Of a stretch of DNA of 64,000 nt, positions 14,927 through 28,929 are shown piece by piece. The stretch lies in assembly GCF_035254145.1 (NCBI RefSeq), contig NZ_DATFAV010000215.1, positions 1,229-65,228 of the forward strand, written 5' to 3'. The translations under genes were made by a program, and so were the position numbers. This DNA is from Caulobacter sp. GTDB taxonomy: Bacteria; Pseudomonadota; Alphaproteobacteria; Caulobacterales; Caulobacteraceae. Within the stretch, counting starts at the first letter, position 1. The number at the start of each line of letters is the position of its first letter. The notes beneath the pieces are model-generated. The model had not been told where the DNA came from and searched no databases. It saw only the letters and a program-made list of their open reading frames with translations.

Positions 14927-15979
14927 TTACTGAAGCAGCAGGCCCAGCGGCTCGCCGCCGTCCGCATAGGCCACCCGGGTGCGGATGACGTAGCGCTGGC
15001 CGTCGATCAGCTTGGCGCGGATGGCCGCGTTGTCGGACGTGCCCGCATCGTCGGCCGAGGCCAGATGGCGGGGCTCGCCGTTGCGCTCCTCGAACAGCAC
15101 GATGCGCGCATCCGACGCCCCCAGGGTCTGGATCGTGTAGTCGCGCGTGGCGTCGGGCTGGAAGACGAAGTCACGCTGCGCGCCCGCCGCCGCCGGCAGG
15201 GGCGTCACCGACATGGCCGCGATCGGAGCCGCCGGCGCCAGGGCCGGATACCAGTGACCAGCCCAGGTCCGGTCGGTGGGCGACAGCACGATATTCTCGC
15301 CCACGCCGGTGACGTCATAGGGCGCCGGCGCCTTGATCAGCCCTTTGCGGAACGGATAGTGCATGACCGAAGCCGGATCCCAGGCCGAGCCGTCGACACT
15401 GTTGGACGGCAGCTTGGCGATGATGTTGTCGTAGGTCGTCTTGCGGTCCCAGCCGTCGCTGGCCAGGTGGTGGGCATAGACCGCCTCCTCGTCCCAGACG
15501 ATGCCGGCCAGCGGGTTCTGGTGCTCGTGCTCCAGGCCCAGGGCGTGGCCGATCTCGTGCAGGGCGGTGGCGCCGCCCCACGCCGTCGTCAGGTCCCAGC
15601 CGAAGTTCATGTTGCGGTCGCGATCGCGGTTCTTGAGGATCGCCGTGCCCACCCACGACCAGCTGCCGTCGCCTTGCCAGCGGCCAATCAGGATCTCGGC
15701 CTCGCTCTCCTTGGGCTCCTCGCGGAAGGTCAGGCCGGGGGCCACGGTCTTCCATTGGGCGAAGGCGGCGCGCACCACGGCCTTCTGCGCCTCGGGCCAG
15801 TTCCAGTCCTCGCGGACGACGAAGCAGTAGCGCAGCACTGTTCCGTTCATCCACTTGTTGTCGCTGCGCCGGATGGCGAAGGCGCGCCCGGGGGCCAGGT
15901 CGGCCGGCAACGGACGGGCCATCGACGGCGGCTGGGCGCACATCGGCCTATCCTCGGCCGAAGTTCTTTGCTCGGACAT
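14927..15979 (-). CDS. Zincin metallopeptidase (M12/astacin-like) with C-terminal beta-sandwich
   Basis: HEIGHALGLEHEH zinc motif, SVMHY Met-turn; GGAGG RBS; no obvious signal peptide. Confidence 0.88.
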   Translation of the reverse strand: MSEQRTSAEDRPMCAQPPSMARPLPADLAPGRAFAIRRSDNKWMNGTVLRYCFVVREDWNWPEAQKAVVRAAFAQWKTVAPGLTFREEPKESEAEILIGRWQGDGSWSWVGTAILKNRDRDRNMNFGWDLTTAWGGATALHEIGHALGLEHEHQNPLAGIVWDEEAVYAHHLASDGWDRKTTYDNIIAKLPSNSVDGSAWDPASVMHYPFRKGLIKAPAPYDVTGVGENIVLSPTDRTWAGHWYPALAPAAPIAAMSVTPLPAAAGAQRDFVFQPDATRDYTIQTLGASDARIVLFEERNGEPRHLASADDAGTSDNAAIRAKLIDGQRYVIRTRVAYADGGEPLGLLLQ

Positions 15980-18122: not shown

Positions 18123-19868
18123 ATGGACGCGGATCAGCCCGCGGCGGCGCGCTATTGGGCGTTCGTCAGCTATAGTCACAGGGACGCGGCGCGCGGCCGG
18201 CGGCTGCATGGGCGCCTGGAGCGCTATGTCCTCCCGCGGCGCCTCGTCGGCCGGATCACGCCGCGCGGCCGCACGCCTCGCCGCCTGGCGCCGATCTTCC
18301 GCGATCGCGAGGAGTTTCCCGCCGCGCACGACCTCAGCACCGAGGTGCGCGCGGCGCTTTCGGTCTCCAACGCCCTCATCGTGATCTGCTCGCCCAACGC
18401 GGCCGCCTCGCCCTGGGTGGCGCGCGAGATCGAGCTGTTCCGCGCCCTGCACCCGGACCGGCCGATCCTGGCGGCCCTGATCGCGGGAGAACCGGACACG
18501 GCCTTCCCCGCTCCGTTGCGCGACCACGCCGAACCCCTGGCCGCCGACTTCCGCCCGGCCGGCGACGGCGAGCGGCTGGCCCTGCTGAAGCTGGTCGCGG
18601 GCATGGCCGGCGTCGGGCTGGACGAACTGATCCAACGCGATGCGCAACGTCGTCTGAGGTCCGTGACGGCCGTCACGGCGCTGTCCCTGTCGGCGGTGCT
18701 AGCCATGGGTCTGCTTACGGCCTTCGCCCTGAGCGCCCGGGACGAGGCCCAGCGACAGCGGGGCCTGGCCCTGGCGGCTCTGGACGAGGCGCGGACCCAG
18801 AGGACGCTGGCCCTGAACGCCCGCGACGAAGCGCAACGGCAAAGGGCCTCGGCCCTGCGGGCGCGCGACGAAGCCCGGCGTCAGCGCGCCGTCGCGCTCG
18901 ACGCCCGCGCCGAGGCCGAGGACCAACGACTGGAAGCCATGGCGATGGTGGAGTTCATGCTGACCGATCTGGGCGACAAGTTGAAAGGCAGCGAACGGCT
19001 GGCGGTGCGCAGCGCCGTCAACCAGCGCGCGCTCGACTACTACGCCGGTCAGCGCCGACTGCCCCCGGCCGCGACAGCCCAGCTCGCCCGGCTGCAAACC
19101 GCCCGGGGCGCGATCTTCGAAGAGAGCGGCGATCTGGATGCGGCGATGATGAAGTTCGCTCAGTCCTTCAGGACCACCACGCGCCTCAGCGAGGCGGCGC
19201 CGAAGAACGCGGCCTACGTCTTCAACCACGCCCAGAACGAGGCCTATGCGAGCAAGGTGGCGTTCATCCGCGCGGACTGGAAGACGGCCCAGGCCGGCTA
19301 CCGGCGCTACAACGCCCTGGCCGAACGCCTGATCGCGCTCCGGCCCGACAATCTCGATTACCGCCGGGAGATCGGCTACGCGCAGGGCAACCTTTGCTCG
19401 GTGGCCTTGCGGATGCGCGACACGCCCGCGGCGCTGGACTATTGCGGCCGGGCGCTGCGGACGATGCGCGACATCGAGGACCGCACGGTCGAGTTGCGGC
19501 GCACCGCCGCGTCCGACGTCGCCAATCGTCATGCCTGGATGGCCGACGTCCGCCAACGCCAGGGCGACCTGACCGGCGCCATGGCCGAGCGGGAGGCGCA
19601 GGAGAAGATCCTCGCCGCCCTCCTGGCCGAGCGCCCCAAGGACCTGGACACCCGCGCCGACTGGATCGCCCTACAGCAGGGCTTGGCCAGCCTCGCCTAC
19701 GCCGCCGGAGATCGCGCCGGCGCCCTCAAGCGCCTGAACGACGTGCGACCGACGGCCGTCACCCTCCTGGAGGACGACACCGACCGGCAGCGCGCCAAGA
19801 AGCTGCTGGCCCAGATCGACGCCAGACTCACCTACTTCAACCAACAAGCGAAGGAAGATCGGAAATGA
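18123..19868 (+). CDS. TIR domain - TM - coiled-coil stalk - TPR protein (cassette 1)
   Basis: AFVSYSHRD, IFRDREE, LIVICSPNAAASPWVAREIELF (TIR); one TM helix; TPR-like helical repeats. Confidence 0.85.
   Translation: MDADQPAAARYWAFVSYSHRDAARGRRLHGRLERYVLPRRLVGRITPRGRTPRRLAPIFRDREEFPAAHDLSTEVRAALSVSNALIVICSPNAAASPWVAREIELFRALHPDRPILAALIAGEPDTAFPAPLRDHAEPLAADFRPAGDGERLALLKLVAGMAGVGLDELIQRDAQRRLRSVTAVTALSLSAVLAMGLLTAFALSARDEAQRQRGLALAALDEARTQRTLALNARDEAQRQRASALRARDEARRQRAVALDARAEAEDQRLEAMAMVEFMLTDLGDKLKGSERLAVRSAVNQRALDYYAGQRRLPPAATAQLARLQTARGAIFEESGDLDAAMMKFAQSFRTTTRLSEAAPKNAAYVFNHAQNEAYASKVAFIRADWKTAQAGYRRYNALAERLIALRPDNLDYRREIGYAQGNLCSVALRMRDTPAALDYCGRALRTMRDIEDRTVELRRTAASDVANRHAWMADVRQRQGDLTGAMAEREAQEKILAALLAERPKDLDTRADWIALQQGLASLAYAAGDRAGALKRLNDVRPTAVTLLEDDTDRQRAKKLLAQIDARLTYFNQQAKEDRK
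18735..18938 (+). repeat. About 5 imperfect 42-bp (14-aa) tandem repeats, ARDEAxRQRxxALx
   Basis: ARDEAQRQRGLALA/ALDEARTQRTLALN/ARDEAQRQRASALR/ARDEARRQRAVALD/ARAEAEDQRLEA. Confidence 0.85.
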
Positions 19869-20497
19869 GCAATCCAACCCGCCTTCTCAGCCAAGAGAAT
19901 AAGTTCGGCAGGATTTCGGGCAACAGGCCCGTCGATTTTAACCCCAAGAAGGTCTTCCATGTCTTTCTGACCATGGATCTATCCAAACCGGGAGACTTAC
20001 AGTTCAACGTCCTGCAGCCGCAGGGGAGCCCTTTCAAATATAAAAGCGATAAAGAACTCGAAGCTTATGCTCTCGGCGCATACGAACATGGCAAATCCTC
20101 GCCGGTTCAATTTCTTCCGAATACGCAATACGATATCGTCGTCAGCGAACAATGCTGGATTATTCTACAACTTGATCCAAGTATTGAAAATTGGCAGTTC
20201 GCACTCGGTGAATTCGGCTGCACGACAAAGAGCGACACAAACGATCGCAACTGCTACCTGCGTCATGTCTATCCTGGACAACTGGGCAAACCAGGCGATC
20301 CCGTCGACAGGAACGGATGCCAGGTTCTCTACTTCGGCGTCTTTCGGCGCGGGGCGCGCGACTCCAACGACGCCAACGACCTGCCGAGCGAACTCTTCAA
20401 CTTCCACACCGAGTTCCTCCAAGCCGCCCTTGGCGCGCGCCTGCCGGTGATCTTCGACCCGGACATCAAGAACGACGCCGACAACAACTTTCCCTAG
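19865..20497 (+). CDS. Hypothetical protein with C-terminal DPDIKN motif (DP-EP/AidA-like beta-sandwich?)
   Basis: ATGA overlap with the TIR gene; 210 aa; AT-rich 5' two-thirds. Confidence 0.7.
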   Translation: MSNPTRLLSQENKFGRISGNRPVDFNPKKVFHVFLTMDLSKPGDLQFNVLQPQGSPFKYKSDKELEAYALGAYEHGKSSPVQFLPNTQYDIVVSEQCWIILQLDPSIENWQFALGEFGCTTKSDTNDRNCYLRHVYPGQLGKPGDPVDRNGCQVLYFGVFRRGARDSNDANDLPSELFNFHTEFLQAALGARLPVIFDPDIKNDADNNFP

Positions 20498-20508
20498 CCC
20501 GCATCGCC

Positions 20509-20532
20509 CCCGGAAGCCGCGAGGCTTCCGGG
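20509..20532. terminator. GC hairpin with GCGA tetraloop between the DP protein and cyclase-like genes
   Basis: CCCGGAAGCC-GCGA-GGCTTCCGGG followed by ACGTTTTG. Confidence 0.55.
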
Positions 20533-20572
20533 ACGTTTTGCTCCATGCGTTCCAGTTCCAGCGAGTACCGGC

Positions 20573-22105
20573 TTGTCCCAATCTTCTCCGCTCGTCGACA
20601 TCATGGCCCTCGCCCGGACGGGCGCGGTCGAGGAGGCCTGGCGGCTGTTTGGCGAATCCGGCCTGGCCGCCGCCCAGGATCCCGCCGCCCTCACGCTGAA
20701 AGGGCGGCTGCTGAAGGACCGCGCGCGGACGGCGCGAGGCCAGGCGCGTCGCGACCTGTTCGTCGAGGCCGCGGCCGCCTATCGCCAGGCGGCGCAACGG
20801 GGCCAGGGCGCCTACGCCTTGATCAACGCCGCCACCCTGTCCCTGCTGGCGGGGGAGATCGAGGCGGCGCGCGCCAACGCCCTGGCCGCCCTCGATGCGC
20901 CTGACAACGACACGCCCTACTATCAGGGCGCGACGCGGGCCGAGGCCCTGCTCGTCCTTGGACGGACGGACGAGGCGAAGGCCGCGCTGACCGAGGCGGT
21001 GTCGCGCGCGCCTCGCGCCTGGGAAGACCACGCCGTCACCCTGCGGCAGTTCCGCCTGATCCTGACCGAACAGGGCCAGGGCGACGACTGGCTCTCGGTG
21101 CTGACCCCGCCCCGCGCCTTGCACTTCACTGGCCACATGGCCCTGTCGGCCGACGAAGGCCTGGCCGGCCGTATCGCCGACGTGCTTGGCCAGGAGAAGG
21201 TGGCGTTCGGCTACGGCGCGATCGCCGCCGGCGCCGACATCCTGATCGCCGAGGCCCTGGTCGAGGCCGGCGCGGCGCTGCACGTGGTGTTGCCGACCAA
21301 CGCCGAAGTGTTCCGCGAGCGGTCCGTCCGTCCGTGGGGCGAGGCCTGGGTGGCGCGCTACGACCGGCTTCTGGTCCTGGCCGACAGCGTGCAGGCGACC
21401 ACCCCCGACCTGGCGCGGGTCTCGCGAGACGCGATCGCCCTGGCCGACGAGACCGCGATGGGGATGACGGTGCTCAAGGCCGCCAGCCTGGCCGGCGAAG
21501 CCCTGCAATTGGCCATGCTGGATCCCGAGCGCCCCGACGCCAGCGGATCGGCCGCCGCGCGCTGGCGAGGCGCCGGCCGCCGCCAGCAGCTGATCGAGGT
21601 TCGTCGCCTGCCGCCCGCCCAAGGCGCGGACGAGCCGACGCCTCCAGAACGGGCGCCGACCGCCCTGCTGGGCTGCGCGCTGGACCTGCCCCTGGACGCC
21701 GATCCGACAGAAGCCCTCGCCACGCTGTCGCGTGTCCTCGCCGCCGCGCCCGCCGGCGTCGCCGCGCCCGCCTGGACCGGCCGCCAATTGCTGCTCGCCT
21801 ACGCCACGCCCGGCCAGGCGGCCCAGGCGGCGGCCGCCTTGCGCGCGGCGCTGGGCCCACGGGCTCGGCTGGCGGGCGCCCATGGTCTGGCGCGGCTGGC
21901 GGCCAGCCCCGTCGGCCACGGGACCATCGCCATCGGTCGGGGGGCCGAGATCGTGACCGCCTATCTCGCGGTGACGCCGCCCGGCGCGGTCTATCTGGAC
22001 CTGCCGTTCGCCGCCGCCCTCTGCGTCGACGCCCCGCCGGACCTAGTCGGCAAGATCATGAACCTGACCGGCGACGCCCTGGGTCCCTACGCCCTTCGCC
22101 CCTAG
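20573..22105 (+). CDS. TPR (DUF4071/TPR-S-like) - SLOG - degenerate class III cyclase-like protein
   Basis: LALARTGA, LKGRLLKD, YALINAATL, FTGH, FGYGAIAAGADILIAE; collinear with 23939..25684 but both cyclase Asp motifs are missing; TTG start. Confidence 0.75.
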   Translation: MSQSSPLVDIMALARTGAVEEAWRLFGESGLAAAQDPAALTLKGRLLKDRARTARGQARRDLFVEAAAAYRQAAQRGQGAYALINAATLSLLAGEIEAARANALAALDAPDNDTPYYQGATRAEALLVLGRTDEAKAALTEAVSRAPRAWEDHAVTLRQFRLILTEQGQGDDWLSVLTPPRALHFTGHMALSADEGLAGRIADVLGQEKVAFGYGAIAAGADILIAEALVEAGAALHVVLPTNAEVFRERSVRPWGEAWVARYDRLLVLADSVQATTPDLARVSRDAIALADETAMGMTVLKAASLAGEALQLAMLDPERPDASGSAAARWRGAGRRQQLIEVRRLPPAQGADEPTPPERAPTALLGCALDLPLDADPTEALATLSRVLAAAPAGVAAPAWTGRQLLLAYATPGQAAQAAAALRAALGPRARLAGAHGLARLAASPVGHGTIAIGRGAEIVTAYLAVTPPGAVYLDLPFAAALCVDAPPDLVGKIMNLTGDALGPYALRP

Positions 22106-22111
22106 CGCCCC

Positions 22112-22780
22112 CTATTCGATCAGGCCTTCCAATCGCTTGGGCGCGACGATGATCAAGGCCTGGGCGGTGCGCCTGATCACCCCTCGCCGCTCCAGCGCGC
22201 TGACCGCGCGCGACACGGTCTCGCGCGTCGTCTGCAGGTCCAGCGCCAGGGCCGCCAGGACGGGCGGAGGGCTGATGGTCCAGTTGTGGGGTTCGGCGCG
22301 CCGCAGCAGCTCGGCATGGATCCGGCCCACGGCGCTCAGGGTGTTGCGGTCGATGATGCGCTCGGTCGACCCCCGCAGTCGGGCCAGCAACATCCGCGAC
22401 AGGGCCAGGCCCACGCAGCTGTGACGCTCCAGCAGGCGCAGGAAGTCCAGGGCCGCGAACACCGCCGCGCGGGCCGTCTCCAGCGCGGTCACCTCGGTCT
22501 CGCTGCGCGCGCCGGGCTGCACGGTGGCGCCGAACAGGTCTCCGGGCGCGTAGTCGTAAAGCAGGATCGCGTTTCCGGTCCGCCCCACGGCGGCGGCGCG
22601 CGCCCGGCCCAGGGTCAGCAGGTAGGTCTCGGCGCAACGGTCGCCCTGGCGGATGATCACCCCGCCCGGCTGATAGGCGCGCTCGACCGCCGCCGCGGCG
22701 ATGCCGCCGGCCACGTCCTCCGGACAGTGGAAGACCTCCCGCGCGAAGGCGGCCAATGCGGACTGATGAGCAGACGACAT
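22112..22780 (-). CDS. Crp/Fnr family regulator with atypical cNMP pocket
   Basis: IIRQGD, PGDLFGA, HTH TTRETVSRAVSALERRGVI; ATG at 22780. Confidence 0.88.
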   Translation of the reverse strand: MSSAHQSALAAFAREVFHCPEDVAGGIAAAAVERAYQPGGVIIRQGDRCAETYLLTLGRARAAAVGRTGNAILLYDYAPGDLFGATVQPGARSETEVTALETARAAVFAALDFLRLLERHSCVGLALSRMLLARLRGSTERIIDRNTLSAVGRIHAELLRRAEPHNWTISPPPVLAALALDLQTTRETVSRAVSALERRGVIRRTAQALIIVAPKRLEGLIE

Positions 22781-22864
22781 CCAACGCCCCCCGCGTCGAC
22801 CCTCGCCAGCATGGCACGAGCCGCCAAGCGCGGACAACCGGCTCGCGGACCCGTCGCCCCTGGC

Positions 22865-23233
22865 TTATTGCGGCCGATCCCGCAGGGCTTCGACAATCAC
22901 CCGGTTGGCGGTTTCACAGCGGCTCTCCCCGAACTGGCGCTCGATCCTCGGCAGGGCCTTGAAGCGGACCTCCAGCTCGGCGGCGGCCGCCTGGGCCCGC
23001 CCCGCGGCCTGGCGCGACTCGGCCAGGCGCTCGCGAGTCTGGGCCAGTTCGGCCAGAATACCGTCGCGGTCGGCGGAAAGGTCGGCCATCTCGCGCCTCA
23101 CCCGCGCCAGCCGCGCCCGCAGGCGAAGCAGCCGCGTCGCCAGCCACGCCACCACCGCCGGCAAACCGATCGACAGGATCTGGGCCGCGAGGATCACGGC
23201 GGGGGTGTCGGTCAGGCTCAGCGGGACGACCAT
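22865..23233 (-). CDS. Small TM + coiled-coil hypothetical protein (122 aa)
   Basis: ATG at 23233 after GAGAAAG; hydrophobic helix followed by heptad-like LARVRREMADL... Confidence 0.5.
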   Translation of the reverse strand: MVVPLSLTDTPAVILAAQILSIGLPAVVAWLATRLLRLRARLARVRREMADLSADRDGILAELAQTRERLAESRQAAGRAQAAAAELEVRFKALPRIERQFGESRCETANRVIVEALRDRPQ

Positions 23234-23461
23234 GTCTTTCTCTACATCCGGGATTAGCGGGCGACGCTGTGAAGACCCGAGCGGCCGCGCCGCCCAGGTC
23301 CTCCACGACGGACGTCCAGTCGTCCTGAAGACGCTGGAGTCCGTCGACTTGCCGCCCCAATTTCCCCACCGGGGCGACAACCTCTTGAAACAACACTTGC
23401 TGGCGCGAGCGCGCGGCGGCGAACGGGTCCGGCGCCGGGTCGCGCGCCGAACGGCAGCGGA

Positions 23462-23662
23462 TTACGCCCTCAAGCCGCTGGGCTGTCGGCCGTCGTCGAT
23501 CGTGGCCAGGGCGAAATCCAAGACCTCGCCGATCACCCCGGACAGACTGTCTTCGGCCACGCCCTGTTCGCGAGCCCAGATCTTAAGGGCGTGGCGAAGG
23601 AAGGTCGTGCCGGCCTCCGGCGCGCGCCCGGCTTCGGCCATGGCGAAATCGTTCACGGACAT
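23462..23662 (-). CDS. Small hypothetical protein (66 aa)
   Basis: ATG at 23662 after GCAGGAG; GC3-biased codons. Confidence 0.5.
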   Translation of the reverse strand: MSVNDFAMAEAGRAPEAGTTFLRHALKIWAREQGVAEDSLSGVIGEVLDFALATIDDGRQPSGLRA

Positions 23663-23836
23663 GGCGCGGCTCCTGCTCGGTTCGGGACGCGGGGTCCCTT
23701 GGGAGATTTGAAAAGTGGACCCGGCCGGCGGTGACCGGGCCCCAGTTCGGTTCACGCGGCCGGAAGCTCTGGGTCAGGAACTGGCTCATCGCGTCCGGTC
23801 GACGCCTGAACCATGTGTGGTGAAGCTGTTTTTGGA

Positions 23837-23852
23837 TGTGCCGATTTTCACA
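23837..23852. promoter_or_regulatory. CRP box TGTGC-N6-TCACA
   Basis: TGTGCCGATTTTCACA, 9 of 10 consensus positions, in an AT-rich intergenic region. Confidence 0.7.
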
Positions 23853-23938
23853 TCAAGAGAAATAACGGTTTTTCCTCAGTCGCCCTGAAGACGCCCTGAA
23901 GGCGCCCTGAGCCCCGCGAAGACGGCGGCGCGCTTCAG

Positions 23939-25684
23939 TCAGGCGCGCGAAAGAGAGAAGATCGGGGTCGCCGCAAAGCCCTTGCGCCCTTGGGTTCGCC
24001 CGACATAGCCGCACCGCACGCGGTCGCCGTGGAAGGTGGCCAGCGCGCCGGCCAAGGCCTCGCTGACATAGGCCGAGCCGGGCGCGACGTCCGGCTCGAT
24101 ACGCGCGGCGACGACGACATGGGCGCCGATCACGGCCGGCGCCTTGGTCAGCGGGTTGGTGCGCAGATGCACGGGTCCGTAGTGGCCGCCGATCCGCAGC
24201 CCCAGCCCCCGCGGCAGCCCAAGGCTTCGCATGTCCAGCGCCCGGTGCGCCTCCAGTAGGGCCAGGGCCGCCAGCGCCGCGTCGATCGGTTGGTCGAAGA
24301 CCAGGAAGAGGCCGTCGCCCCAGGTCTCGACATGGCGTGGCGGCGCCTCCAGCCCCTCGACGACCTCGGCGATACGGCCCATCACCCCCTCGATGAAGGC
24401 CGGGATCTGGTGATCTCGCAGAGCGCCGAAACCCTGGACGTCGGCGAACAGCATGGCCTTCATCGCCCGCGCGCCGACCTCGACCGGCGAGATAAGGCGG
24501 GGCGGACGCGGGGTCGGGCGGTCGATCGGGATCACCGTCGCCGGGCGATCCCCCCGCGCCCAGTAGGCCAGGTCGGATGAGACGCCGGCGGGGCCGGGCG
24601 CGTCCTGGCCGTCCCACACCGCCAGTTGCACCGCCTGGGTCGAAAGGGTCTGGGCCCGCAGCACCGCGCAGCCCATGGCGAACTGACTGGCGTAGGCGAA
24701 CACCTGCTCGTCGCCGAGATAGGCGTCCTGCGAGGCGTAGCGGATGGAGGTCGCCCGCGCGAGGCAGCGCTCGAAGCGGTCGACCCAATCGGGTCCGAAC
24801 GGCTCCACCGACACCTCGACGAAGGAGGCTCGACTGACCGGCAGGACGACGTGCAGCTCGGCGCCGGCGTCCAGCAGCGCCTCGGCGAAGACGATGTCGG
24901 CGCCCGCGGCCAAACCGCCATAGCCGAAGCCGACCCGCTGTGTCCGCAGCGCCTCGTCGATACGCGCCCGCAACGCCGTGTCGGCCACGTCCAGGATGTG
25001 GCCGGTGAAATGGGCGCAGACCGGCGGACGAAACGGTGCGAGCCACGCGGCGTCCAGGCCGGTCTCGTGGCACAGCATCTCCAGCTGGCGCAGGGTCGAG
25101 GCGTGGGCGGCGTAGGCGCGCGGCGCCAGGGTCAGGCCCTGCGCCAGGGTTTGGCGCGCGCCGTCCAGGTCGCCGATGAGGAAACGGGCCTCGGCGAGGC
25201 TGGCGGCCACATAATAGGCCGCCTCGCCTGTCAGGCCCGGCGGGGTGTCCATCGCCAGGACCGATCGGGCCTGGTCCGCCGCGCCCGCGCGGTCTCCCGC
25301 CACCAGGGTCATGGTCGCGGCGTTGATGGCGCCATAGGTCCCGCCCGACCGCTCGGACAACGCTTCGTATCGCCGGCGCGAGGCCTTGGCGAACGCGGCG
25401 CGGCGCGCCCCCCGGCTGGAGAGGGCGACGTCCTTCAGCAGCCGGGCGCCCAGCGCGACCGTGTCGGCGTCCGCGTCCTGGGCCAGGCCCAGACGGACAT
25501 ATTCGGACCGCGCGAAATCAAGGGCGCCCGCCCGCGCCAAGCACAGCACCGCCGCATAGGCGGCGGCGCGCGGAGCCTCGCCCCCCTCCAGCGCGGCGTG
25601 GGCGATGTCGTAGGCGGCGAGGATTTCGCCGCGCCGGATCAGCGCGGCGACCGCCTCACCGTCGAACGGCGGGTCTGCGCTCAG
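23939..25684 (-). CDS. TPR (DUF4071/TPR-S-like) - SLOG - class III nucleotide cyclase
   Basis: FGYGGLAAGADIVFAE (SLOG), MLFADVQGF, ETWGDG, RIGGHYGP, AARIEP; frame open upstream of GTG 25549 to CTG 25684. Confidence 0.85.
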   Translation of the reverse strand: MSADPPFDGEAVAALIRRGEILAAYDIAHAALEGGEAPRAAAYAAVLCLARAGALDFARSEYVRLGLAQDADADTVALGARLLKDVALSSRGARRAAFAKASRRRYEALSERSGGTYGAINAATMTLVAGDRAGAADQARSVLAMDTPPGLTGEAAYYVAASLAEARFLIGDLDGARQTLAQGLTLAPRAYAAHASTLRQLEMLCHETGLDAAWLAPFRPPVCAHFTGHILDVADTALRARIDEALRTQRVGFGYGGLAAGADIVFAEALLDAGAELHVVLPVSRASFVEVSVEPFGPDWVDRFERCLARATSIRYASQDAYLGDEQVFAYASQFAMGCAVLRAQTLSTQAVQLAVWDGQDAPGPAGVSSDLAYWARGDRPATVIPIDRPTPRPPRLISPVEVGARAMKAMLFADVQGFGALRDHQIPAFIEGVMGRIAEVVEGLEAPPRHVETWGDGLFLVFDQPIDAALAALALLEAHRALDMRSLGLPRGLGLRIGGHYGPVHLRTNPLTKAPAVIGAHVVVAARIEPDVAPGSAYVSEALAGALATFHGDRVRCGYVGRTQGRKGFAATPIFSLSRA

Positions 25685-26088
25685 GGAACCCGGCCCGCGC
25701 CGTTCTCGACGTCAGGATCGAGATCGATCTTCTGTTCGTGGCCGTCCAGCATGAACAGGCTGTAGGTGTAGACGCCCATCCGCGCGCATTCGTAGATCAC
25801 CTTGAAGCAGGTGCGCTCGGCGAACGTCGCGCGGCCAGGCCACTCGGTCACCCAGACATAGCTGGAGAAGTTGACGCCATAGTCGTCGGCGACCTTGATC
25901 GGCCGGCGCTGGAAGGTCCATCCGGCCTTGATCAGTTGGTCGCTGAGCACGAAGACCAACTCGCAGCGCTCGCTGAGATCCAGCTTGAGCCGCGTCGGCT
26001 TCGTCGGATCCGCGAAGTTCATGAAATTGAAGTTGTCATCCAGGCCGATGACCAGTTCGACGACTTTACGAGGTGTGGGTTCAGTCAT
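25681..26088 (-). CDS. Hypothetical protein with C-terminal DPDVEN motif (DP-EP/AidA-like?)
   Basis: 135 aa; ATGA overlap with the TIR gene; beta-strand pattern. Confidence 0.7.
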   Translation of the reverse strand: MTEPTPRKVVELVIGLDDNFNFMNFADPTKPTRLKLDLSERCELVFVLSDQLIKAGWTFQRRPIKVADDYGVNFSSYVWVTEWPGRATFAERTCFKVIYECARMGVYTYSLFMLDGHEQKIDLDPDVENGAGRVP

Positions 26089-28148
26089 TCGTGCGCCTCC
26101 CGAGCTTGAGCTAAAGCTTCACCTACGGTGGAGTCTCGCCAGAAGGCAAGGAACCCCGGGTGGGCGTATCCATGCTTGGCAAGGTCGCTGACGATGCTCG
26201 CGGCCTGGTCGGCCCGGCCATCCGCGAGATAGGCGCGGGCCAGGATGTCCAGGCTGGCGGGCGAGAGCGAGGCCCGACGCGCGCCCAGGACCTCGACGGC
26301 GGCGCCGCCACGTCCCGCCGCCCATTCCGCGAAACCATAGAGCGCGGCGCTATCGGCCTCCTTTCGCCAGTTCGTGACCTTCATGCGCGCGGCCAGCGCC
26401 TCTGACATCCGTTGAGCCTTAGCGGACTGTCCGCCGCGCCGCGCCAGGATGATCGAAAGCTGGTCCAGCCGGCCGTCCAGATCGGCGCGCCAGGCCTCGG
26501 CCTTGGGGCCGGATCGCAGTCGGGCCAGCATCGCGGCCGCGTCGGCGCGAGCGGCCTCGGCCTCCTTGAGCCGGCCCGACCACATCGCCAGCTCCAGGGT
26601 GTCCATTCGCCCGATCATCAGAAATTCGCGCCACCGAACATTGGTCGGGTCGAGCGCGGCCAGGTCTTGGAGCCGCGCGACGTTGCGCTCGGACCTGGCC
26701 CGCGCCTCCGCCCCTCGACCAAGATCAAGGTCCAGCCGGGCCAGCGCCAGTTCGGCCCCCACGCTCCGCACCCGCAGGCGCTTGTCGGCCGGATATTTCG
26801 CGATGGCTTGCGACAGGATGCGCACCGCGGCCTCGCGTTCGGCCAGCGCCTCGCGCGGACGTCCCAGCCGCAGCAGGCAGTCGGCGGCCCAGGCCCGCGA
26901 ATTGGCCGCGCCTTCCAGCAAGGTCCGATCCTGTGGGGCGCGCGCGCGTTCCGCCTCGAACACGGCCTGGCCGGCGCGGAACGCCTCCAACGCCTCGGTC
27001 GGCCGATCCTGCTCGAACAGCAAGGTGCCGAGATTGTTCTTGGCGTACGCGACCTCGACCCGCCACTCGGGACGGTTGGGATCGATCGCCACCAAGGTCT
27101 GGGCCAGGTCGCCGTAGCGCTTGAAGCCGCGCTCGGCGCCGGCGACATCCTCGCGCCGCCATTCCACATAGGCCTGCCAGAAGACGTTCTGGGCCTCGTC
27201 GAAGATGCGCTCGCCGTTGCGCGGATCGCGCTGGACCAGGGCGTGGGTCGTCGCCGCCGCCTGGCTGAAGGCGTCCTGGGCGCCGGCCAGGTCGCCGCGC
27301 TGCTCGCGGATGGTGCCCAGCAAAGTCTGAGCCTTGGCGCGCTGGCCGAGCGCCTTGTCGTCGAGGCGCTCGGTCGGCGCCTTGGCGTAGTAGGCCAGGA
27401 CCTTGGCGCTGACGCCGTCCAGCACATCCAGCCGCCCCACCGGCTCGAGCTGCTGGCGCAGGTCGCCCAGCATGAAGGCCACCAGCGCCTCGGTCTCGTC
27501 GCGCTGTTGCCGGGCGATCTGGCGGGACTTCAGCGTGGCAACCGTCATGGCGCCCATGCCGATCGCCAGGACAACAGCCGCGGCGGTGAACGCCGCCATC
27601 ACCTGCAGGCGTCGGCGCGCGTCGCGTTGGACCAGCTGATCCAGGCGCACGCCCAGCAGTTGCGCGGCGATTTTCAGGCGCGCCAGACGAGGGCCGTCGC
27701 CGTCCCGGCGCAGGTCCACGGCCAGGGGCTCGACGCCCTGCGGCAAAATAGCGCGGAGGGCGGGCGGCAGCACCGCGTCCAGCGCCGTTCCAGCCGGCAG
27801 TCCCGGCGCGATCACGCAGATGATCCGGCCAGCGTCCCGGGTCTTCAGGAAATAGTCGACCTCCTGATCCACCCAGCGCGAGGCGGCGGAAGCGGGCGAA
27901 CACAGCACGATCAGGGCGTCAGAGCGGTCCAGAGCGCTGCGGATCACCTCGTTCAGGTCCAGCGAGGCGCTCAGTTCGTCGCGATCGCGGAAGATCGGGC
28001 GCAGCGTCCGCCAGCCCCCATCGTTCTCGCCCTTGGCCAGTCCGCGCGGCGCCCGATAGGCCTCCAAGGCGCGATGCAGCCAAACAGCGGTTTTGAGATC
28101 GCGGTGACTATAGCTGATAAAGGCTCTGTACCGCTGTCGACTATCCAT
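26085..28148 (-). CDS. TIR domain - TM - TPR protein (cassette 2)
   Basis: AFISYSHRD, IFRDRDE, LIVLCSPASAASRWVDQEVDYF; TM helix; TPRs; ATG at 28148. Confidence 0.87.
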   Translation of the reverse strand: MDSRQRYRAFISYSHRDLKTAVWLHRALEAYRAPRGLAKGENDGGWRTLRPIFRDRDELSASLDLNEVIRSALDRSDALIVLCSPASAASRWVDQEVDYFLKTRDAGRIICVIAPGLPAGTALDAVLPPALRAILPQGVEPLAVDLRRDGDGPRLARLKIAAQLLGVRLDQLVQRDARRRLQVMAAFTAAAVVLAIGMGAMTVATLKSRQIARQQRDETEALVAFMLGDLRQQLEPVGRLDVLDGVSAKVLAYYAKAPTERLDDKALGQRAKAQTLLGTIREQRGDLAGAQDAFSQAAATTHALVQRDPRNGERIFDEAQNVFWQAYVEWRREDVAGAERGFKRYGDLAQTLVAIDPNRPEWRVEVAYAKNNLGTLLFEQDRPTEALEAFRAGQAVFEAERARAPQDRTLLEGAANSRAWAADCLLRLGRPREALAEREAAVRILSQAIAKYPADKRLRVRSVGAELALARLDLDLGRGAEARARSERNVARLQDLAALDPTNVRWREFLMIGRMDTLELAMWSGRLKEAEAARADAAAMLARLRSGPKAEAWRADLDGRLDQLSIILARRGGQSAKAQRMSEALAARMKVTNWRKEADSAALYGFAEWAAGRGGAAVEVLGARRASLSPASLDILARAYLADGRADQAASIVSDLAKHGYAHPGFLAFWRDSTVGEALAQAREAHE

Positions 28149-28182
28149 GCGTCGCCCCCGACCGACAGCAGGAGCGTACTCG

Positions 28183-28929
28183 ATGAAAACGTTTTCGCCA
28201 TCATCCTCGCGCGCTTCGTCCACTGGGGCGGACGGGCTTTCGCCGAACGACCACCGGGCCAACCGGATCTTCCGGCACATGTCGCCCGAGGAGATCAGCG
28301 CGCTGGGGCCGTCGATCGAGCACCTGACCTACGGCAAAGGCGAGATGATCCTTCAGCGTCGTGACGAGGAAGGCGGGATCTATCTGTTGCTGGAGGGCGT
28401 CCTGCTGGCCAATCAATACGCCCGCTCGGGCCGCGAGGTCGGCTATCGGCGCATCGCCGCCGGCAGCTATTTCGGCGAGATCTCGGCGATCGACGGCCTG
28501 CCCCGCTCGGTCAACGTCGTGGCGCTGGAGGATGCGCGCATCGCGCGCCTGCCTCAGTCGCTGGTCCGTCGCCTGTTCGAGGAATCGCCGCGCTTCATGA
28601 AGGCGCTGCTGGAGGACATGGCGGGCCTGGCCCGGGCCCTGACCGACCGCCTGTTCGAGCTGACCGCCGTGTCGGTGGCCTGCCGGGTCGACATCGAGTT
28701 GCTGCGGATGGCTGGCGTGGCGGGCGGCGACGGCCAGCGCGCGGTGATCAGCCCCTGCCCCACCCATGCCGAACTGGCCGCCCTGCTGGGCAGCCAGCGC
28801 GAGCCGGTGACGCGGGAGCTGAACCGCCTGGCCGGCCTGGGCATCGTGCGCCAGACCGGCCGCACCCTTCACGTCCTCGACCTCCCGGCCCTGGCCGGAG
28901 AGGTCGAGCGGATCGGCGGGGAGATCTAG
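28183..28929 (+). CDS. Crp/Fnr family regulator with canonical cNMP pocket
   Basis: YFGEISAIDGLPRS phosphate-binding cassette, HTH SQREPVTRELNRL; ATG at 28183 after CAGGAG. Confidence 0.9.
   Translation: MKTFSPSSSRASSTGADGLSPNDHRANRIFRHMSPEEISALGPSIEHLTYGKGEMILQRRDEEGGIYLLLEGVLLANQYARSGREVGYRRIAAGSYFGEISAIDGLPRSVNVVALEDARIARLPQSLVRRLFEESPRFMKALLEDMAGLARALTDRLFELTAVSVACRVDIELLRMAGVAGGDGQRAVISPCPTHAELAALLGSQREPVTRELNRLAGLGIVRQTGRTLHVLDLPALAGEVERIGGEI

Follow-up and report, generated by a model that had tools for sequence, protein, structure and literature searches.

The window analysed here, a 64,000-nucleotide stretch of contig NZ_DATFAV010000215.1 from Caulobacter sp., carries two diverged gene cassettes lying side by side in convergent orientation, A on the plus strand and B on the minus strand. 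Each contains a gene for a receptor with a TIR domain, a transmembrane (TM) helix and a TPR module, a gene for a small partner protein (P0002 in cassette A and P0003 in cassette B) and a third gene coding for a TPR-S protein, with a gene for a Crp-type regulator beside it (Table 1). Both small proteins can be placed, with high confidence, as divergent members in the superfamily of SO1698-like (DP-EP) beta-sandwich proteins, and on balance they appear to be fast-diverging, putatively autoproteolytic partners dedicated to a modular TM-TPR receptor, whose TPR module would read their tail or processing state. The window has a G+C content of about 69%, and the nearest relatives of its proteins are from Caulobacter. 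Only two TIR_2 genes were found in the whole genome, namely those of receptors A and B, and both small genes overlap the stop codon of their own TIR-TM-TPR gene via ATGA; since there are no more than these two, the original prediction that each TIR gene has a small partner turned out to be literally true.

Fold and family of the small proteins

No similarity between P0002 and P0003 was detectable by BLASTP (E 0.19). A profile alignment of the two families (E 3.5e-3) placed W110-Q-F112 of P0002 on W57-T-F59 of P0003, together with the beta-strand pattern and Asp-Pro on Asp-Pro, which are exactly the features that had been named from the sequence as the only ones shared. P0002 scored 41.0 bits against Pfam pNTSase1 (PF20301, 'predicted novel nucleotide synthetase'; cut-off 25 bits; profile positions 55-159 of 161) and its relatives carry the NCBI name 'nucleotide synthetase'; nothing was found for it in NCBIfam or PADLOC. 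P0003 had no match in Pfam even at E<=10, and none in NCBIfam or PADLOC; as PF20301 did not match it, it is not a member of pNTSase1. An exhaustive hidden Markov model search of the P0003 family against 1.8 billion representatives recovered no more than four strong clusters (at 50% identity) plus a single distant relative of 147 amino acids (aa), which also ends in ...IIIDPVANN, and no bridge to other families was found in that search. Of 121 genomes from the window's taxonomic family, eight belong to its own genus; five of these eight have the P0003 family, as against none of the 113 others, and pNTSase1 was rare, being found in 2 of 401 genomes of the phylum. P0002 belongs to a computationally described family with a probably misleading name, and P0003 to an unassigned sister family.

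AlphaFold2 was run on the family alignments without templates and yielded all-beta models for both P0003 (predicted local distance difference test, pLDDT, 83) and P0002 (pLDDT 72). When the P0003 model was searched with Foldseek against a PDB set of about 174,000 entries, ranks 1-12 were all chains of SO1698 (E 1e-4 to 1e-3, TM-score 0.57-0.70), the best match to any other protein being a cupredoxin (E 7e-3, TM-score 0.41). For the P0002 model the SO1698 chain 3njl was at rank 1 (E 2.6e-3, target TM-score 0.60), followed by a rank 2 match with an E of 0.068; this model has about 75 extra residues, distributed in a helical insert (53-89) and a loop (113-153). Unrelated folds, raised earlier as the contrary outcome, were not what the predicted models showed, both returning SO1698 first. 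A beta-sandwich taken alone is generic, but two independent models that pick the same small protein from about 174,000 entries make a generic sandwich hard to invoke, and chance similarity was rejected on this ground together with the homology of the upstream partner. An AidA/PixA-type fold, another candidate of the original prediction, was also rejected, as it was absent among the significant fold matches; MakD appeared at rank 4 for P0002, with an E of 0.09.

Profile comparisons were performed with hhalign against a reference of 22 DP-EP proteins, with column-shuffle (n = 60) and reversal controls, and in local mode because the global mode gave nonsense for the P0002 family. The P0003 family aligned with DP-EP end to end over 111-124 columns (probability 69-72%, E 4e-5 in local and 4e-6 in global mode), with Asp-Pro falling on Asp-Pro, and its score of 34.3 was reached by none of the 60 column shuffles (11.8 +/- 1.8) nor by the reversed target (13.9). 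Canonical pNTSase1 aligned with DP-EP (E 5e-3, reached by 0/60 shuffles), with the P0003 family (E 1.5e-3) and most clearly with the P0002 family (E 7e-8, probability 95%). The link of P0002 to DP-EP rests on the fold match, the motif, synteny and this chain via canonical pNTSase1.

The TM-TPR receptor as common partner

Residues 270-552 of receptor B, which correspond to the TPR module, matched the product of the gene that immediately precedes a DP-EP gene (BLASTP, E 7e-23). For 20 of the 21 DP-EP loci, the same-strand 1.5 kb ahead of the DP-EP gene matched the receptor B TPR (tblastn, E 1e-15 to 4e-32), the 21st being a second, tandem DP-EP copy, and the TPR part of receptor A also matched sequence ahead of DP-EP genes (tblastn, E as low as 4e-18). 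All 21 DP-EP genes examined, counting the tandem copy, thus lie directly downstream of a TM-stalk-TPR module, a regularity that was found here rather than taken from a published criterion, and both window cassettes fit it. The proteins upstream of DP-EP are composed of a wHTH (Trans_reg_C), an nSTAND1 NTPase, one TM helix, a Q/E/R-rich stalk ending in ...FM(V/L)G(E/D)(F/L)... and TPRs, and the window receptors have the same layout after the TM helix. The synteny and this shared layout indicate that the conserved unit is a TM-stalk-TPR module plus a DP-EP-type small gene, with a variable cytoplasmic head that is a TIR in the window and a wHTH-nSTAND1 NTPase in the canonical DP-EP loci.

The overlaps between the small open reading frames and the TIR genes were read where they had been predicted. 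Junction A is ...cggaaATGAgc..., with the small-gene ATG at 19865-19867 and the TIR-gene TGA at 19866-19868, and has a Shine-Dalgarno-like AAGGAAG run upstream; junction B, on the minus strand, is ...cacgaATGActg..., with GGGAGG ahead of it. Bacterial genes often overlap via ATGA, and a lone case carries little weight. The cassette is kept in relatives, and its tight junction recurs: the small gene overlaps the receptor gene by 4 nt in both C. soli (L028) and Caulobacter sp. Root1455 (L029) and by 11 nt in L031, which comes from a distant metagenomic relative, and L027, from an Alteraurantiacibacter genome, has a gap of 2 nt.

Between cassettes A and B the receptors share 35% identity and the third genes 40% (over about 350 aa, spanning the TPR-S domain and the Rossmann-like segment), and the small proteins are not alignable by BLASTP. 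The respective values for receptor, third gene and small protein were 55%, 57% and 42% between cassette A and its Root1455 orthologue, and 62%, 70% and 65% between cassette B and its C. soli orthologue. Judged by the comparison of A with B, the small protein is the part of the cassette that diverges fastest. Receptor and partner types track each other, as A-type receptors share 42-46% identity with the canonical pNTSase1 locus receptor and only 35-39% with B-type receptors.

Having one TM helix and a cytoplasmic TIR, the receptors are predicted to hold their TPR module in the periplasm. A signal peptide was found in 1 of the 22 DP-EP proteins. At one DP-EP locus (L001, 1351-1857, plus strand, equal to L007, 9227-9733) two tandem DP-EP genes follow a wHTH-nSTAND1-TM-TPR gene, and the second tandem protein has a Sec-type signal peptide (MTHLRTLLGAALLLSAPAMA), a hint that the periplasm, the predicted location of the TPR module, may be the site of action of some DP-EP proteins.

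The Asp-Pro tail and its possible cleavage

P0002 ends in DPDIKNDADNNFP (20456-20497) and P0003 in DPDVENGAGRVP (25719-25681). The Asp-Pro was invariant in every family alignment made: D198, P199 and D200 are invariant in the P0002 family (A1), and D124, P125 and N129 in the P0003 family (A2). Canonical pNTSase1 has an invariant I-D-P-D-I-(K)-N-P-P, its DPDIKN tail being that of P0002, and DP-EP proteins end in xDP[QEA][VIM]xN, according to 22 bona fide members gathered from genomes. In all four families, 9-15 residues separate DPx[IVM]xN from the C-terminus.

SO1698 of Shewanella oneidensis (DUF1888 / DP-EP PF08985; PDB 3N55 and 3NJF-3NJN; labelled 'aspartic peptidase'), which defines the DP-EP family, is the sole studied DP-EP protein, and no described biological role was found for it. 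Like the window proteins, as modelled, it is a small all-beta sandwich with an Asp-Pro within DPx[IV]xN near the C-terminus. Its site was located as S-P-D116|P117-Q-I-I-N by aligning two DP-EP proteins to the PDB chains, and D198-P199 and D124-P125 align on the DP-EP Asp-Pro. The PDB chains of the wild type and of the K98A and Q118A mutants have 119 residues, indicating that these were cut, whereas those of D37A, S114A, D116A and P117A have 128 residues, indicating that these were not. Citing Osipiuk 2012, the secondary source PMC11655445 mentions reported cleavage of the SO1698 sequence at low pH. The S-P that precedes the Asp in SO1698 is replaced by I-F in P0002 and by D-L in P0003; across the families, the S114 position (-2 from the Asp) is occupied by Ile in the P0002 family, by D/T/N in the P0003 family and by T/S in canonical pNTSase1. 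The D37 equivalent of P0002 aligns with its invariant D90. On balance, self-cleavage of the small proteins at Asp-Pro is slightly more likely than not.

In the mechanism that we propose, the partner would be co-produced with its receptor via the overlapping stop and start codons and would cut itself at the invariant Asp-Pro, 11-12 residues from the C-terminus (D198|P199 or D124|P125), in the way that SO1698 does at D116|P117. The products would be a core with a C-terminal Asp and a short peptide starting with PD[IV]xN, the candidate tails after the Asp being PDIKNDADNNFP for P0002 and PDVENGAGRVP for P0003 (calculated masses of 1,359.4 and 1,110.2 Da, respectively). A TPR module would read the processing state or the freed tail, the candidate reader being the TPR of the receptor itself or, with lower probability, the third-gene TPR-S, and this reading would gate the TIR head. 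The TIR may act on NAD+, to judge from domain identity, and its output may be passed to the TPR-S/Rossmann-like/cyclase protein and then to the adjacent cNMP-binding Crp regulator, whose location next to the cassette suggests a transcriptional output.

Several results weigh against this reading. Neither P0002 nor P0003 matched the DP-EP Pfam model PF08985 even at E<=10, six further members of the P0003 family were also unmatched, and 24 canonical pNTSase1 proteins scanned at E<=10 gave no DP-EP cross-match. The profiles of the P0002 and P0003 families retrieved neither SO1698 nor anything else relevant from the PDB sequences, and the direct comparison of the P0002 family with DP-EP was not significant (E 0.089, reached by 2/60 shuffles). 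The S114 of SO1698 is not kept, being Ile in P0002 and Asp in P0003, and the D37 equivalent in P0003 is two positions off. Cleavage data are confined to SO1698 among all members, and neither P0002 nor P0003 has a signal peptide, although the receptor TPR is predicted to be periplasmic. The family guess of the original prediction, DP-EP (DUF1888), was largely supported at the superfamily level, where SO1698 was the top fold for both proteins, the P0003 profile aligned with DP-EP and the TM-TPR partner was shared; it did not stand at the level of the Pfam model, which neither protein matched, and the existing place of P0002 in pNTSase1 had been overlooked.

The same fold and motif could instead belong to an adaptor or ligand that is never cut, with an Asp-Pro tail that is structural or TPR-binding, the intact protein docking, as a stoichiometric subunit or inhibitor, on either the receptor or the TPR-S protein; we regard this as possible, albeit doubtful. 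Each small gene is flanked by the genes of two TPR proteins, and short terminal peptides are commonly bound by TPR domains. The change of S114 to Ile in P0002 also agrees with an uncut protein, as does the extension of the motif past Asp-Pro to an invariant Asn (and to PPP in pNTSase1), which is beyond the needs of a scissile bond. Two points nevertheless argue for cleavage: DPx[IV]xN, the exact motif at which SO1698 is cut, recurs equally far from the C-terminus and is the most conserved feature of four otherwise very divergent families, and the predicted models retain the fold responsible for the cut.

A small protein that makes a second messenger sensed by the TPR-S/SLOG-type protein, as the Pfam and NCBI names imply, is quite improbable. 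P0002 is indeed above the PF20301 cut-off, its relatives are named accordingly, its neighbours (TIR, TPR-S, cyclase and cNMP-binding Crp) are those of nucleotide signalling and it has several invariant polar residues. However, the name was predicted from context, the all-beta sandwich of the models has a self-cleaving protein as its sole significant PDB relative, and nucleotidyltransferase or cyclase folds were absent among the Foldseek matches. The cassettes already encode two types of nucleotide-producing domain, TIR and class III cyclase, and the pair of small protein and TM-TPR module also occurs with wHTH-nSTAND1 heads, in loci lacking a TPR-S/Rossmann-like/cyclase third gene. The SO1698-like predicted fold and the kept Asp-Pro site therefore make the 'nucleotide synthetase' label of P0002 probably wrong. 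Asp-Pro cleavage passes via a reactive C-terminal Asp anhydride, which in SO1698 reportedly ends linked to Lys98 (as Osipiuk et al. are said to have described in 2012). Such an anhydride could acylate a partner protein or a small amine and thereby mark the receptor covalently, and a K98A mutant is included in the mechanistic set of PDB entries, but the Lys98 position was not conserved in the alignments and no data indicate a target, so that an acyl-donor or conjugation module seems very improbable indeed.

Cassette content, related systems and significance

Table 1. Coordinates of the cassette features in the window.
Feature	Position	Strand	Description
Receptor A	18123..19868	+	581 aa; N-terminal TIR, one hydrophobic (TM) helix, repeat-expanded stalk, TPR module
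Small partner A (P0002)	19865..20497	+	210 aa; pNTSase1 member, predicted DP-EP-like beta-sandwich
DPDIKN motif, partner A	20456..20473	+	Candidate scissile bond D198|P199 at 20456-20461
Third gene A	20573..22105	+	510 aa; TPR-S, Rossmann-like (SLOG-type by motif) segment, C-terminal domain without assignment
Crp-type regulator A	22112..22837	-	cNMP_binding and HTH_Crp_2; convergent with cassette A; start codon uncertain
Third gene B	23939..25549	-	536 aa; TPR-S, Rossmann-like segment, class III nucleotidyl cyclase domain
Small partner B (P0003)	25681..26088	-	135 aa; genus-restricted family, predicted DP-EP-like beta-sandwich
DPDVEN motif, partner B	25702..25719	-	Candidate scissile bond D124|P125 at 25719-25714
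Receptor B	26085..28280	-	TIR, TM, TPR; longest open reading frame 731 aa; likely start M45 at 28148, giving 687 aa
Crp-type regulator B	28147..28929	+	Divergent from receptor B; likely start M45 at 28279

Receptor A matched Pfam TIR_2 (3.5e-9) and ThsB_TIR (1.3e-5), and receptor B matched ThsB_TIR (5.5e-12) and TIR_2 (7.3e-12), all above cut-off; the likely start of receptor B was placed at M45 because the alignment with receptor A begins there. TIR gene A contains a tandem repeat of 42 nt (14 aa; 18726-18884, plus strand; 3.8 copies, 66% match), which encodes ARDEAQRQR... units of the stalk that separates the TM helix from the TPR module. A single such unit is present in receptor B, in the receptor of the canonical pNTSase1 genome G188 and in the DP-EP-linked receptors, so that the stalk of receptor A is lengthened. 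The operon divergent from TIR gene A includes a gene for a 350-aa zincin-type metallopeptidase with Matrixin/Astacin matches (14927-15979, minus strand).

The TPR-S match of third gene A was clear (5.6e-9), and that of third gene B was marginally under the cut-off (6.8e-6; 27.1 bits, cut-off 27.6 bits). The Rossmann-like segment of the third proteins reads GYGxxAAGADI...HVVLP and is SLOG-type by motif only. A class III cyclase domain was detectable in third gene B only (Pfam Guanylate_cyc 4e-5, above cut-off; PDB match to the cyclase Ma1120, E 1.5e-3), whereas third gene A had no cyclase match and its final ~160 residues matched nothing in Pfam or in the PDB sequences. The three canonical DP-EP loci that were read completely each have a diguanylate cyclase gene no more than a few kb from the DP-EP gene (L005, 6903-7997, minus strand; L006, 10009-10962, minus strand; L007, 12098-13051, plus strand). 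This gene is PAS-GGDEF by Pfam in L005 and L006 and was judged GGDEF from the C-terminal sequence only in L007; in L005 it is directly downstream of the DP-EP gene on the same strand. This proximity parallels the nucleotide cyclase of the window cassettes.

Both Crp-type regulators matched cNMP_binding and HTH_Crp_2 (1.5e-10 and 8e-9 for A; 1.5e-16 and 3.7e-11 for B). A Crp-type neighbour of the cassette A type also occurs in Root1455 and in the Alteraurantiacibacter genome, and in C. soli the Crp-type gene is arranged as in cassette B. The B-type cassette of C. soli has a fourth same-strand gene after the cyclase gene (L028, 10351-11742, plus strand; 463 aa, without a Pfam match).

Compared with the DP-EP loci, the window cassettes have two extra genes, those of the TPR-S/cyclase protein and of the Crp regulator. 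The gene order of the window is that of the canonical pNTSase1 locus in G188, which is composed of TIR-TM-TPR, pNTSase1, TPR-S protein and Crp. The pNTSase1 family, of which P0002 is a member, and TPR-S (PF20308) reportedly make up a TIR-linked nucleotide-signalling system that was predicted computationally by Burroughs and Aravind; pNTSase1 is named a synthetase, whereas the evidence from the window points to a DP-EP-type fold, and P0003 stands apart in its own family. In Thoeris type VIII, the TIR protein ThsB makes cyclic ADP-ribose (cADPR) and ThsI combines a TPR with a CMP-hydrolase-type domain (bioRxiv 10.64898/2025.12.03.692087). Both this system and the window cassettes pair a TIR gene with a protein combining a Rossmann-type nucleotide domain and a TPR of a kind for which a role in TIR signalling is predicted, and Thoeris type VIII is, by analogy, the nearest experimentally studied counterpart of the TIR-to-TPR leg. 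In contrast to it, the window TIR is membrane-anchored with a TPR module of its own, and the cassettes add the DP-EP-like small gene in between, a cyclase-type end on the third protein (cassette B) and the Crp regulator. The receptors gave weak ThsB/TIR matches in PADLOC (E 9e-6 to 3e-3), where the small and third genes were unmatched and no effector was matched; NCBIfam gave only a sub-threshold Thoeris type III match and no effector match. The supplements of the Thoeris survey contain no mention of PF20301, PF20308, PF08985, pNTSase1 or TPR-S.

The recurrent pairing described above ties DP-EP-type proteins to a modular membrane receptor with a TPR, whose fixed partners they are. In one of its forms this receptor has the domain order of a Toll-like receptor: solenoid, TM helix and TIR. 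A bolder and rather unlikely extension would see a widespread class of bacterial one-pass receptors with an outward TPR solenoid and a swappable cytoplasmic head, each armed by its own co-encoded DP-EP-fold pro-ligand that must cut off its Asp-Pro tail before firing; these would be the bacterial counterpart of Toll and processed Spaetzle, and the whole 'nucleotide synthetase' Pfam family would consist of such ligands. The two diverged cassettes adjacent in the window offer a natural comparison of cognate and non-cognate partners. If the cut at Asp-Pro is true, a self-cleaving family gains a function, the propagated 'nucleotide synthetase' annotation (PF20301 and NCBI product names) needs correcting, and the mass shift of 1.1-1.4 kDa would provide a handle on how bacterial membrane TIR receptors are switched on.

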